A DNA stretch of 64,000 nucleotides from Candidatus Bilamarchaeaceae archaeon. Its GTDB lineage: Archaea; Micrarchaeota; Micrarchaeia; Anstonellales; Bilamarchaeaceae. Positions 9,001-12,000 of this stretch are shown piece by piece. A program made the position numbers. The stretch spans positions 930 through 64,929 of the forward strand of contig JAWCKZ010000003.1 in NCBI GenBank assembly GCA_038851325.1, given 5' to 3'. Position 1 is the stretch's first letter. Every line of letters starts with the position of its first letter.

Positions 9001-12000
9001 CATGTCGGCTCGTTCACAAATGAGATGAGAAAATTGAGAAAGGGCGATCCCCTTTCTTTTCGTGGTCCTTTTGGTAACGGATTCACAATTCCGAAGGCTG
9101 GCGAAAGGGCGCTTATTGTTGGAGGCGGAACAGGTATTGCGCCGCTTTATTTTCTCGCAAAAAAAGCAAGAGAAAGTGGTGCTCTACCATCAATAGTTTT
9201 TGGCGCAAGAAGCGCTTCCCTCTTTATATACAAAAAAAAGCTAGAGAGGATGGCGAAGGAACTCGTATTGACAACAGATGATGGTACAGGAGGGTTAAAG
9301 GGAACGGTAATGGTTGGTATCGAAGAGGCTGAAAGACACGGAAGAATAGATAGGGTGTACACATGCGGGCCAGAAAGAATGATGGTTGCAGTAGTCAAGT
9401 GGGCCTATGATAAAGGTATCCCATGCGAGGCAAGCCTCGAGAGATATATGAAGTGTGGAATTGGAGTTTGCGGCTCATGCACCATTGGAAAGCATAGGGT
9501 GTGCGCAGATGGTCCGGTTTTCCCTGGCGAGCTTCTGCTAAAAATACCTGAGTTTGGGTCTGTAAAAAGGGACGGAAGCGGTAGGCTAACTCCGCTTTGA
9601 AGATATCATTGCTAGGTCATCCCCAGCCTCGAACGCACCATCAGTATATATTCTAAATCGCCTTCCTTCTTTTCTAATAAACTCGAAACCAAGAGCCTCG
9701 TCATCGCTGCCAAACCAACGTGTTAGTGCGTTTCCTATACAATACTGTGTATTAACTACTCTGCCGTCAACCTCTGCAAAACTATCCCCGGCTGATGCTA
9801 TCTCGATCAACCCTTTCTTTTTTCTCAGTATTATCGCAGTAGTTTGCATCTCGCCTATTTCTTCTGCCCATGTTAAAACAGCGGGCTTAAAATCTCGTAT
9901 TTTAAGAAGATCCACCAACTCTGGCATCCTCTCAGCCACAGCAGCAGCATCCCGTCCGCCACCGCCATACCCTTCATCAGTTATACTGATTCCATCAAAA
10001 ACAGCATATAAGTGCAAATTTTCATTGATGTAGGCAGCGTCATCGCAGCCCCAGTAGTGAGAAGCTCCCCATCGGTATCTAAGGACGCAAGTAAGAAAGG
10101 TAATGCGCTTTTCTTCGCCGATATTCAACTTCATATCGCCAATTACTCCTTGAGCGGCTAGAAGTTCCATACAATCACTGCGCCCCAATCAAACTCAGAA
10201 CAGAAGCGATACGCGCCCTAAAATCCTCTGCCTTTTTGTAATAATCTTTGTAGCCCACCCATTCATTATCGTAATGAAAATCATATATATCGTCATCTGT
10301 TATAACAAGCCAGATATCCTCTCCGTAGTCACACTCTGTATCTGAACATATAGAAGGCGCGCCTGGTTCGCCTATTGTAAAATAATACTGCCCACTCTGT
10401 GGCTCAATTGCAGGTGCGCCTTTTAAATTTTGGATGTCGCTGCCATCTCTAATGGTAACATTGCTGAGAGCAACGACACAATGTGAGTTGTAGCATATTA
10501 TGTAAACATTCTGCTCCGATGTACCAAGAAGCGCCTTCTCCGCGTCTTTGTAAAACCAATTGTTATATATCTTGTAATTGCCAGAGCCAGGCACAGCCGC
10601 AACTACCTCTTGACTTGCTTCTCGTGCTTTTAGATAATTGTAAGCTGCCTTAAAGAAAAGCGCCCAATCCTCGCAATCCCCTCCTTTGTTTTCAGCAAAC
10701 TCGTTAATGGAAAGAAGGGTATCTTTAACCTCTGTCTTATAGAGCCAGTCCTCCTCAATCTTCATGATAACTGGAATGCACGGTAGATTTATTTCCTTGC
10801 CAGATGAGCACCGGTCTATAAGATATTGAATTCTCGGTGAGAGAATGCCTATGTCAGAATTTTCCTTGAACCACCCCATAGACTCATTTATTCGCTGTTG
10901 AAACACACTGAGCTCAACACTTAGGTTCTCCATCTCCTCTCTTGCCTTTCTAAGTTCGGTCGCCAATAGAGCGCTCTTCTCAGTGCAGTTCTCATAGAGT
11001 TCACGTTCTAGAGTAAGTTCGTCTGTGCAGCGCCCCAGTGAATTGTTTGTCTCGTTGAGTGTAATATAGAGTTCGTTAAGTTCGTTTCTCAAGGAAGCAG
11101 TCGTGGCCTTCTCTTCACCAAGCTTCTGCTCGGTTTCGATTAAACTTGTACTGAGGGCAGCGTTTTCTTCCTCAAGAGCGGCTGCGCGCTCGCGCCACCT
11201 TTCGCTTTCAAAATAGAAGTAGACACAGCATAAAAGGAGCAGCACAGAGAAGAATATGATAATACCTATTCGGTTCATGCAAGTTCATAGCAAGAAAAAA
11301 ATTAAAAGCGATGGATAATCGAAAGTGTTAGCAGCAGCGCGCTTTCCCGTGCAGAGCACAGTACTCGCAACGCCGTGAAGGAGCTTAATTCGGCCGCATT
11401 CCGTCGCCGCACATCGGCGCCGTCGCGCGTCTTCCGTGTTCGGAATGGGAACGGGTGTTTCCTCCTTCCTATGACCGCTAACGTTATACTATATGACGAC
11501 ACCGTTTTTAAATCTTTTTCGGCACACTTTTTGTGTGGAAGAATGGGTTGTGAGATAAACGTTATGGAGGAAAAAATAGCAAACAAACACGCTCTCGTTA
11601 TCGGAGACGTAATGATTGACGAGTATCACTATTGTAGAACTGAGAGAAAAACACCTGAAGGACCTTTTCTTGTTTGGGACCTTGAGCGGCTTGAGAGAAG
11701 GCTCGGTGGAGCCGGAAATATAGCACACAACATAAGAACACTTGGTGCCAGGGTAACACTTGCTGGTGTCGCGCTTAATGACGAGATTGAACGCCTCGCG
11801 GCTGAGAATGGAATAGAATGCTTTTTCGCAAGAGACGGGAGAGAGACCACCATCAAAAGACGCTTCTTCGATATTGAAACAAAAGCTCTGCTCGCCAGAG
11901 AGGATATCGAAAGCAGGAAACCACTGCCAAAAGATGCTGCCGAATTCCTTGCGCGCCAACTAAAGAAAAACGATTATGATGTTATCGTGTTCTCAGATTA

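Follow-up and report, generated by a model that had tools for sequence, protein, structure and literature searches.

The locus raises the question of how a very small archaeon of the Micrarchaeota from a hot spring obtains its 5S rRNA when the 5S rRNA gene detected in its genome is interrupted within a conserved run, and whether the interrupting sequence is removed from the transcript by the tRNA splicing machinery or stays in the mature RNA. The gene is 156 nt long and occupies positions 11327-11482 on the (-) strand of the window, the whole stretch of 64,000 nucleotides that was analysed (contig C3:12256-12411). It matches the Rfam family RF00001 with 39.2 bits in the window, in line with the weak score of 39 bits given by the initial annotation, and with 49 bits in a search of the whole genome (~900 kb in 18 contigs, 90.9% complete), in which no other 5S match was obtained. 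In the alignment with six congeners, a single clean gap of 42 columns opens in 6/6 of them and therefore locates the insertion at 11389-11430 (-), between G52 and U53, so that the earlier description of a 156-nt gene split by 42 nt is borne out. Exon 1 (RNA nt 1-52; 11431-11482, (-)) ends with ...CCGAACACGGAAG, and exon 2 (nt 53-114 of the spliced form; 11327-11388, (-)) begins with UUAAGCUCC; the insertion is flanked by ...CACGGAAG on one side and TTAAGC... on the other, and since the flanking letters differ, its boundaries are fixed for as long as the product is to stay the same. The insertion splits the conserved run GGAAG|UUAAGC, and none of the columns invariant across the alignment of the 7 genomes is lost from the exons, which carry the species-diagnostic variants GUUAGCGGUC (5') and GCUGCUAAC (3'). 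A match to the exon pattern had previously been counted in 2 of 7 genomes of the genus; this count reflects variation in CCATYCC and not further interrupted genes. Rfam's own placement of a 41-nt insert in loop C was dropped for G52|U53, because the genus alignment is gap-clean there and the invariant CGAACACGGAAG is kept, and a scan of the insertion alone retrieves no Rfam family at E <=1. By eye, a TATA-like box, GAUUUAAAAACG (11503-11514, (-)), lies ~21-32 nt upstream of the 5' end of the gene, a position typical of archaeal TATA boxes, and may function as its promoter, while a T-rich run, UUUUAAUUUUUUU (11292-11310, (-)), 17-35 nt downstream of the gene, may function as its terminator. A scan of the locus for sigma-70 promoters and intrinsic terminators, with models that are not applicable to archaea, returns no match.

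An assembly artefact, namely a chimera of the 5S gene and an intron-like sequence from the 16S gene, would be favoured by the conserved 5S core, which is common to many organisms of the community, is covered at a depth of thousands and breaks contigs and assembly graphs. The runs listed for this organism are four DNA-like hot-spring runs of a single study, possibly including the source sample, and no RNA run; their contigs speak against an artefact. Specifically, the X2 and X4 contigs cover 11152-11460 and lead from the unique flank across exon 2 and the complete insertion to 30 letters of exon 1 (one below the 31-letter bridging rule); X1 pieces tile the same path, and no insertion-free joint is found at the 5S locus among the contigs of these runs. 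X2 shows 0 differences from the window and X4 9, all outside the gene (8 counted in 162 nt of flank). Moreover, the 5S insertion differs in sequence from all the other copies of the family to which it belongs (see below) and, hence, was not copied in from the 16S gene, so that an artefact is regarded as extremely improbable.

The X4 contig also bears on a second alternative, by which the gene would be a dying, redundant copy and the working 5S gene would lie outside the assembly. The incompleteness of the assembly, at 90.9% in 18 contigs, leaves room for such a copy, as do the frequent failure of rRNA genes to assemble and the breaking of contigs in the conserved 5S core. However, the diverged X4 strain, which has accumulated its differences in the flank, shows 0 across the 134 nt of the 5S gene that are covered; the exons of the present gene keep all genus-invariant columns, its intron-free 114-mer has as minimum free energy structure the canonical three-arm 5S shape, and the TATA-like box and the T-run flank it. 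Additionally, nearly all relatives in the order and family sets have a single 5S match. A decaying copy is therefore very unlikely.

The nature of the insertion is indicated by its relatives in the same genome. It consists of an A, a 35-nt irregular hairpin, the 4-nt tail GCCG and a final AA, the hairpin (helix h'; 11395-11429, (-)) being made of an outer stem, a tandem G.A, an inner stem and a loop of 5-7 nt. With a model of this hairpin family, named Type A (model R1), 11 copies are detected across the genome, each of them within a stable-RNA gene (five in 16S, two in 23S, one in 5S and three in tRNA genes), even if the three rRNA genes combined take up ~6 kb of the 900 kb genome. When the model is built from 8 other Type A copies with the 5S copy excluded (R2), its sole match in the 64-kb window is 11389-11430, aligned over model positions 1-42 of 42 with 49.3 bits (E 5.5e-10). 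The mean column identity of 7 aligned copies is 85%; in the same alignment 97.4% of the cells of the hairpin are paired, 6/11 pairs show compensatory changes and 0/500 shuffles equal this covariation, although neither the covariation nor the register counts given below represent independent events, since the copies are related. The likeness to insertions in 16S and tRNA genes proposed by the initial annotation is thus confirmed, with two of its coordinates slightly corrected (8693-8736 to C17:8702-8743, and C8:30838-30875 to C8:30839-30880). A kink-turn was considered for the GA/GA internal loop and discarded, since the three would-be "bulge" bases form pairs across it; the change of A10:U28 to G:C in the 5S copy also opposes it.

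The sites occupied by the other copies are informative as to their fate. The 16S copies interrupt runs such as CCUACGGGnnGCAG|CAG and CCGUAG|GGGAACCUGCGG, which we take to be universally conserved in 16S rRNA, and the tRNA copies, as read by eye, lie in the D-loops of tRNA-Glu(UUC), tRNA-Glu(CUC) and tRNA-Gln(UUG), three genes with three introns each. To judge from their positions, the other ten copies, at tRNA, 16S and 23S sites, must be removed from the RNA. At the three tRNA loci Rfam gives no tRNA match and one chance MIR396 match (E 0.064), and ARAGORN finds nothing either in the intact or in the intron-deleted sequences. In general, intron-rich stable RNA genes score poorly in this genome, as seen in the 39 bits of Rfam for the 5S gene and in the 23 tRNAs called by ARAGORN, which are mostly mis-called. 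The load of insertions is high: the single 16S gene contains 15 insertion blocks, one of which is made of two introns back to back, and the rRNA introns are uniformly ~35-55 nt long and non-coding.

The junctions of the insertion are compatible with a splicing motif. The H strand CGGA of exon 1 (RNA nt 47-50; 11433-11436, (-)), whose C47-G49 are part of helix III in the mature 5S according to the Rfam structure line, can pair with the H' strand GCCG, the site-specific tail at intron nt 37-40 (11391-11394, (-)). The resulting helix would leave a proposed 5' splice bulge AG|A (11430-11432, (-); cut 11431/11430), which takes the form NN|A in 11/11 Type A copies, and a proposed 3' splice bulge AA|U (11388-11390, (-); cut 11389/11388), which takes the form AN|N in 11/11. 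In the 5S gene, CGGA/GCCG forms 3 Watson-Crick pairs and an A.G mismatch, which, taken alone, has by arithmetic a chance probability of ~0.05. The tail of each Type A copy varies by site, is complementary to its own 5' exon and is followed by two unpaired nucleotides, the first of which is A, as also found in the 5S copy (AA). With the geometry fixed as exon[H4][2]|A-hairpin-[H'4][2]|exon, 7 of the 11 related copies have 4/4 H pairs, 3 have 3/4 (two tRNA copies besides the 5S one) and 1 has 2/4. For the complete set of 22 insertions of 30-60 nt in the rRNA genes of this genome the mean is 3.5/4 H pairs, compared with 1.98 in cross-site controls and 1.05-2.09 in slid registers; the observed mean is somewhat inflated, as each insertion was given whichever of up to 5 product-preserving shifts paired best. 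A reading of the tails as target-site duplications was rejected, given that, by eye, a direct repeat occurs just where H is palindromic (GGCC, GGUC). The geometry of the 5S motif is the same as in the 10 other Type A copies. The strict hBHBh' form of the bulge-helix-bulge (BHB) motif is absent from the 5S gene, where the outer helix h is reduced to 1 bp (U54:A46) and H is mismatched; the relaxed HBh' form is present, with an h' of 4 bp that continues into the 35-nt hairpin. The presence of the relaxed form runs against the earlier remark that no canonical BHB could be found by eye; as defined in the available part of PMC3239211, this form is one that (alpha-beta)2 and epsilon2 enzymes accept.

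The genome also encodes candidate enzymes for both reactions. The EndA gene (391 aa, C1:16745-17920) contains PF01974 in two stretches and PF02778, and matches over its full length, with E 4.5e-130, PDB 4fz2_A, which we take to be the ARMAN-2 epsilon2 splicing endonuclease; by its sequence, EndA is an epsilon2-like splicing endonuclease. An RtcB ligase gene is found at C2:2322-3626 (559 bits). In vitro, the ARMAN-2 epsilon2 enzyme cuts strict and relaxed motifs, as reported in the consulted sections of PMC3239211. Given that it belongs to the same family as the mini-introns of the tRNA, 16S and 23S genes, the 5S insertion is most likely removed by the tRNA-splicing enzyme, and we consider it probable, on the grounds of comparative sequence and predicted structure, that the 42 nt are a protein-spliced archaeal mini-intron of the BHB type in a 5S rRNA gene. 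In the mechanism we propose, the 5S gene would be transcribed on its own, the intron would fold into its 35-nt hairpin (helix h'), and its tail GCCG would pair with C47-G49(A50) of the exon to form the central helix H, exposing AG|A and AA|U as bulges of 3 nt each. Both bulges would then be cut by the epsilon2-type endonuclease, RtcB would join the exons into a 114-nt 5S rRNA and probably circularise the intron, and after ligation C47-G49 would pair again with C29-G31 to restore helix III. Alternatively, the transcript may be cut and never rejoined, so that base pairing would keep halves of 52 and 62 nt associated in a fragmented 5S. Fragmented rRNAs exist in other organisms; still, RtcB is encoded and must rejoin the exons around the Type A copies of the tRNAs, whose unjoined halves would be nonfunctional, and a fragmented 5S is regarded as very unlikely.

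The alternative that deserves most weight, even if we hold it to be improbable, is that this copy of the intron family stays in the mature 5S as an expansion hairpin, or is removed just partly. The earlier proposal of an intron cut by the tRNA splicing endonuclease has held at every point that can be tested at the level of sequence, but retention persists as a live rival to it. The retained arm would branch between C26:G52 and A25:U53, atop the central protuberance. According to the portion of PMC7812874 (Stepanov & Fox 2021) at hand, confirmed 5S expansions of 41-46 nt in Thermoanaerobacterales are rooted at E. coli 52-53, a site described there as the least obstructed; by our own mapping the present insertion lies at E. 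coli 54/55, 1-2 nt downstream, which makes it plausible on steric grounds that a hairpin of 42 nt is kept. The mismatch in H and the missing outer helix of the 5S motif point in the same direction. Conversely, the same element must leave the D-loops of tRNAs and the cores of 16S and 23S rRNA, the enzyme reads the local motif alone, and two tRNA copies likewise have 3/4 H pairs. The unconstrained minimum free energy of the precursor is -59.4 kcal/mol, with the intron paired with loop C over 9 bp, and the BHB conformer reaches -55.6 kcal/mol, whereas the precursor with a native helix III and a side hairpin, at -50.8 kcal/mol, has the lowest stability among these three conformers, owing to the 9-bp complementarity between the insertion and loop C. 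Known expansions, as characterised in the text available of PMC7812874, spare conserved motifs and have no complementarity to the core, while here the invariant run GGAAG|UUAAGC is split and, besides the pairing with loop C, the tail pairs over 3 bp with helix III.

The distribution of enlarged 5S genes offers arguments on both sides. The insertion is present in 1/7 species of the genus and absent from the other 6/6 in the 5S alignment, unlike the clade-wide expansion of Halococcus, and it resides in the sole 5S gene found here, as opposed to Thermoanaerobacterium, in which normal copies are kept. 5S genes were found in 141/151 genomes of the order, 92/99 of the family and 148/151 of the phylum (the order and phylum sets being samples of 151 genomes each), and the enlarged ones are just this gene (156 nt) and that of genome G086 (158 nt), that is, 2/92 of the 5S genes detected in the family. 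A recheck of four genomes with a weak or absent 5S (G233, G213, G225, G012) retrieved nothing beyond a fragment of 36 nt where a contig ends. The G086 insert is 43 nt long, lies 4 nt downstream of the site described here, has a different sequence and forms 2/4 H pairs in every allowed register; an unrelated insert with a poor H helix so close by fits a region that tolerates expansions and, thus, retention, although the two inserts, which differ in position and sequence, are not a clade-shared trait. Its assignment to an intron sequence family of G086 was dropped, because its highest global identity, 0.67, does not exceed the shuffled null, whose maxima average 0.63 and reach 0.70; the general format alone is shared, with an A at the start, a 9-bp stem and AA at the end. 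In a wider search of metagenome and genome contigs with the exon anchors CCGAACACRGAAG N30-60 GCNCCTYCACGG, the former gave 1 locus, a GC-rich chance match outside 5S, and the latter 3 loci, of which one is G086 again and two are chance matches in bacteria, so no third interrupted 5S was found with these anchors.

With excision taken as the preferred reading, the 5S intron appears as one member of a dispersed family: judging from the aligned copies, Type A has spread within this lineage into tRNA, 16S, 23S and 5S genes, and the 5S intron is one of its 11 copies. The copies at SSU 809 and SSU 1721 have identical 36-nt cores and differing tails that match their exons. It may even be, as a more tentative possibility that we do not favour, that the family is, or was until recently, mobile at the RNA level and colonised tRNA, 16S, 23S and 5S with a 4-nt exon "address" for each copy. 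In that case, a core that can stay identical while the target sets the tail would suggest a mechanism of targeting or insertion, for instance reverse splicing by the endonuclease and the ligase, and archaeal splicing would have the 5S among its genuine substrates. Introns spliced by proteins are known in archaea from tRNA, 16S rRNA, 23S rRNA and a few mRNAs. No report of an intron in a 5S rRNA turned up in the open-access literature, in agreement with the initial annotation, and the intron loads of 16S (15 blocks here and 27 in the 16S gene of G086) have no counterpart in the literature examined. If the 42 nt are spliced, some archaea need the tRNA splicing pathway for their 5S to mature, and the 156-nt pre-5S would be a clean substrate in which an epsilon2 endonuclease acting on a relaxed motif is set against the fold that its host RNA natively adopts. 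One family in four RNA classes, together with dozens of 40-nt rRNA introns, would also provide a natural system for intron movement; from a practical standpoint, such introns interrupt "universal" primer sites.

Among known systems, the closest likeness in terms of dispersal is with Thermoproteales, in which Fujishima et al., in Mol Biol Evol in 2010, reportedly described transposed tRNA introns of one family at several positions, implying mobility. Here too, one sequence family occupies differing positions in different stable-RNA genes; the present family, however, extends beyond tRNA to each of the three rRNAs and has identical 36-nt cores with different exon-matching tails. The non-canonical tRNA introns and the three-unit epsilon2 splicing endonuclease of Candidatus Micrarchaeum acidiphilum ARMAN-2, as presented in the accessible part of Fujishima et al. 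2011 (PMC3239211), come from the same phylum and share the enzyme architecture and the relaxed BHB motifs at unusual positions, but that system concerns tRNA only, with "5S rRNA" unmentioned in the part in question, whereas here such machinery is predicted to process the 5S, 16S and 23S precursors as well. Likewise, the introns of BHB type described for the 16S and 23S genes of archaea in the sections seen of Jay & Inskeep 2015 (PMC4496867) occupy conserved rRNA sites with a bulge-helix-bulge at the exon-intron junction, are patchy among close relatives and are excised by the tRNA splicing endonuclease. In those sections, which deal with Thermoproteales, Desulfurococcales and Aigarchaeota, 13 intron loci are given in 16S for all known archaea and 5S is absent, in contrast to the 5S host and to the 15 blocks in one 16S gene reported here. 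Lastly, the systematic survey of oversized prokaryotic 5S genes in PMC7812874, to the extent of the text available, treats the inserts as expansions and leaves open the excision of unverified cases. The confirmed ones, among inserts that include those of 108 nt in Halococcus and of 41-46 nt in Thermoanaerobacterium, are retained in the RNA, and its archaeal cases are all Halobacteriales, clade-wide and at position 104.1-105. The insertion described here, by comparison, breaks up an invariant motif, can pair with the core of its host and belongs to a family of putative introns.

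The 5S rRNA gene of the archaeon under study (G000; assembly of 0.9 Mb in 18 contigs, 90.9% complete) lies at 11327-11482 on the reverse strand (C3:12256-12411 on the contig scale), scores 39.2 bits against the Rfam 5S model in the window and 49 bits in the whole-genome search, where no other 5S match occurs. The other six species of the genus have 5S genes of 114-115 nt, and in the alignment all six show a single, clean gap of 42 columns between ...CCGAACACGGAAG and UUAAGCUCC..., which places the insertion at 11389-11430 (-), nt 53-94 of the RNA. The 42-nt interruption of a 156-nt gene that the initial annotation had claimed is thus confirmed, and the uninterrupted state that it had noted in one species of the genus holds for all six. 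According to the Rfam structure line, the insertion divides the two-base-pair step C26:G52 / A25:U53 between helices II and III, and its boundaries are fixed in that any slide alters the invariant product. Public DNA sequencing runs contain the same arrangement. Specifically, a contig of run X2 (0 differences) and one of run X4 (9 differences) cover 11152-11460, starting in the unique flank, crossing exon 2 (11327-11388) and the entire insertion, and ending 30 letters into exon 1 (11431-11482), one letter under the bridging rule applied; pieces from run X1 tile the same path, and no joints without the insertion are reported in the contigs of the matching runs. Of the X4 differences, the eight with listed positions all fall at 11187-11313, outside the 5S gene, so this diverged strain has the same interrupted gene: all eight are in the downstream flank (11152-11313) and none in the covered gene and insertion. 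All four matching runs come from one study, possibly including the source sample, and their agreement is one of consistency, not of independent replication.

The rRNA insertions of G000 include several recognisable families, among them Type A, whose consensus is ACGCrUGACAGCGCCGAUGUAUGGCGAUGGAAUGCG followed by 6 variable nt. In an alignment of seven Type A copies that includes the 5S insertion, mean column identity is 85%, and the proposed hairpin (outer stem, tandem G.A step, inner stem, 7-nt loop) has 97.4% of its cells paired and compensatory changes at 6 of the 11 pairs, levels reached by none of 500 shuffles and by no slid register; the copies are related and the events hence not independent. 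A covariance model built from these seven sequences retrieves 11 copies in G000: five in the 16S gene, two in the 23S gene, one in the 5S gene and three on contigs C8, C4 and C10. As any seed sequence is bound to match a model made from it, a second model was built from eight other copies with the 5S left out; the 5S insertion is its sole match in the window (49.3 bits, E 5.5e-10, model positions 1-42), which bears out the kinship with 16S insertions proposed in the initial annotation. The three copies outside rRNA sit, as read by eye, in D-loops after GGUCAA of tRNA-Glu(UUC), tRNA-Glu(CUC) and tRNA-Gln(UUG) genes, each with three introns and a matching acceptor stem, and neither Rfam nor ARAGORN detects these genes. 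All 11 copies are therefore inside stable-RNA genes, and the rRNA genes, about 6 kb of the 900 kb, contain eight of them, a confinement that a DNA transposon would not give. Congeners hold 0-4 copies, G000 being the maximum of the genus, and G086, a relative in the same family but a different genus, holds 10, nine of them on rRNA contigs; the family predates the species. Two copies in the 16S gene, at C17:7790-7831 and C17:8702-8743, have identical 36-nt cores and tails (GGUUAU and GGCCAC) that are unlike at 4 of 6 positions and each match their own exon, a combination not easily explained by drift and one that bears on the mode of intron movement.

The intron reading of Type A rests on the other copies, which cannot stay in the RNA. 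A 42-nt arm is incompatible with function in a tRNA D-loop and in such 16S runs as CCUACGGGnnGCAG|CAGGCGCGAAA and CCGUAG|GGGAACCUGCGG, which we take to be universally conserved functional regions. Mini-insertions of the same format also interrupt GCAGCCGC|GCGGUAA in the 530 loop and, in 23S rRNA, GGGUUCAG|(A)ACGUCG beside the peptidyl-transferase centre. The Type A junction has a fixed format, exon[H, 4 nt][2 nt] | A - hairpin - [H', 4 nt][2 nt] | exon, where H and H' are the exon and intron-tail strands of the central helix; this is the bulge-helix-bulge (BHB) arrangement, in which cleavage follows the second base of either 3-nt bulge, the register being derived from the canonical tRNA 37/38 intron. 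H pairs at 4/4 positions in seven of the 11 copies, at 3/4 in three (the 5S and two tRNA copies) and at 2/4 in one, a 39-nt copy that reaches 4/4 if one bulge is shortened, and the bulges are NN|A and AN|N throughout. Among the 22 rRNA insertions of 30-60 nt in G000, 16 have 4/4 H pairs, 21 an initial A and 17 a terminal AA; their mean of 3.5 H pairs, somewhat inflated as the best of at most five product-preserving shifts each, compares with 1.98 for cross-site exon-tail combinations and 1.05-2.09 for slid registers. The 5S copy pairs CGGA with GCCG in H, through three G-C pairs beside one A.G mismatch; its bulges read AG|A and AA|U, its intron helix h' has 4 bp and runs on into the hairpin, and its outer helix h has one pair. 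No canonical BHB had been found by eye in the initial annotation: a strict hBHBh' motif is indeed absent, but a BHB is not lacking altogether, the junction being a relaxed HBh' motif.

The genome also encodes splicing machinery. Its endonuclease (391 aa, two catalytic-domain stretches and an N-terminal domain) matches PDB chain 4fz2_A (395 aa) end to end with E 4.5e-130; the database label reads only 'tRNA intron endonuclease', and we take the chain to be the epsilon2 enzyme of ARMAN-2. RtcB is encoded as well (559 bits). The ARMAN-2 epsilon2 enzyme cuts strict as well as relaxed motifs in vitro, according to the portions cited here of Fujishima et al. 2011 (PMC3239211). A second, shorter frame at C8:40030-40257, with 159 aa open before the contig breaks off, scores 37 bits against the catalytic domain of the endonuclease.

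Enlarged 5S genes are found only in G000 (156 nt) and G086 (158 nt), a rarity that means not found in those searched: a sample of 151 genomes from the order, of which 141 gave a 5S match, the full set of 99 family genomes, of which 92 did, and a sample of 151 genomes from the phylum with at least 80% completeness, of which 148 did, among them the unpublished G195 with a 5S of ordinary length. Weak or absent matches, when rechecked, carried no information on enlargement, and exact-pattern scans of metagenome and species-genome collections gave no third case, only chance matches and G086 again. The G086 insert is 43 nt long, lies 4 nt downstream of the G000 site (GAAGUUAA|...|GC) and has an initial A, a 9-bp stem and a terminal AA, with H pairing only 2/4 in every allowed register; kinship with other insertions was rejected, as sequence likeness is no better than in shuffled controls.

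Measured against the insertion-free genes of the congener G005 (1491 and 2911 nt), the G000 16S gene (C17:7002-9150) is interrupted by 15 blocks, each 35-87 nt long and one composed of two adjoining introns, and the 23S gene has about 11 insertions (C13:5569-9220), two of 130 and 263 nt. The relevant portions of Jay & Inskeep 2015 (PMC4496867) count 13 intron loci in 16S over all known archaea, against 15 blocks in this one gene. G086 has the heaviest rRNA intron load among the genomes examined, with 27 blocks in a 2586-nt 16S gene (C3:20937-23522) and about 40 insertions in a 4589-nt 23S gene (C58:572-5160), mostly of 35-55 nt. The 5S gene is interrupted in just those two genomes whose large rRNAs are the most interrupted of the set examined, which fits a spill-over from an active intron population, on two genomes only. 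The G000 16S and 23S genes also hold a second mini-intron family, Type B, with variable stems and the conserved loop GGUUUUUAGG(A/C)A (for example at C17:7608-7650, 7992-8036, 8311-8355 and 8838-8881), and a third with AAAAUUUGC (C17:8471-8517 and 9045-9088). A tRNA at 27150-27242 (+; Rfam 56.3 bits) carries a 24-nt D-loop insertion and is by eye a tRNA-Ala(GGC) with G3:U70, mis-called tRNA-SeC by ARAGORN, which reports only 23 tRNA genes in the whole genome, most with implausible introns or anticodons; this low count is consistent with multi-intron tRNA genes being missed by standard finders.

Alternatively, the insertion may be kept in the mature 5S rRNA as a hairpin. The G000 site presumably corresponds to E. 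coli 54/55 and that of G086 to about 58/59, adjoining 57-58, with GAAG|U mapped on the E. coli sequence. In the parts of their article cited here, Stepanov and Fox (PMC7812874) catalogue 89 oversized prokaryotic 5S rRNAs, for which retention is shown experimentally in Halococcus and Thermoanaerobacterium; the thermoanaerobacterial insert (41-46 nt) is rooted at positions 52-53, the 'least obstructed' site, positions 57-58 are blocked by uL5 in bacteria, and unverified inserts, they note, might be excised like introns. Retention near this expansion site is sterically plausible, and such tolerance may also be a reason why an intron could become fixed there. Against retention, the insertion splits an invariant 5S motif, occurs in one species of seven and in the sole 5S gene found, has the same enzyme-recognition geometry as copies that require excision, and pairs with the 5S core. 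Specifically, when the 156-nt precursor is folded without constraint (MFE -59.4 kcal/mol at 37 C), the intron GGAAUGCGG pairs with 5S loop C; the energy is -55.6 kcal/mol with the BHB forced and -50.8 kcal/mol with native helix III forced and the hairpin as a side arm, an order unchanged at 70 C; the MFE of the spliced 114-mer is the canonical 5S shape. The conserved Type A motif CGGAAUGCGG is complementary to loop C CCCAUUCCG over 9 bp with one bulged base (11395-11404 with 11441-11449, -), probably by chance; this pairing dominates the predicted precursor MFE and would be a competitor of the BHB and of the native fold alike. Nearest-neighbour energetics predict that the insert, unless removed, would disturb the uL5/uL18-binding part of 5S, an effect that proteins could override. 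Overall, retention appears unlikely, and readings other than these two are minor.

The 5S insertion is, judging from sequence, probably a spliced relaxed-BHB mini-intron; if spliced, it would extend a known kind of intron to a new class of host, 5S rRNA. A search of open-access papers and bioRxiv gave no report of a 5S rRNA intron, in agreement with the initial annotation, which knew of none. 5S rRNA is not mentioned in the main texts of Nawrocki et al. 2018 and Sakai et al. 2022, nor in the main-text portions available of Jay and Inskeep 2015 (PMC4496867) and Fujishima et al. 2011 (PMC3239211), while in excerpts of a Haloferax EndA paper it appears only as a probe or control and in the abstract of a Methanococcus paper it matures at A/U-rich motifs. 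The thermoanaerobacterial expansion resembles the G000 insert in length, 41-46 nt against 42 nt, and in its neighbouring site.
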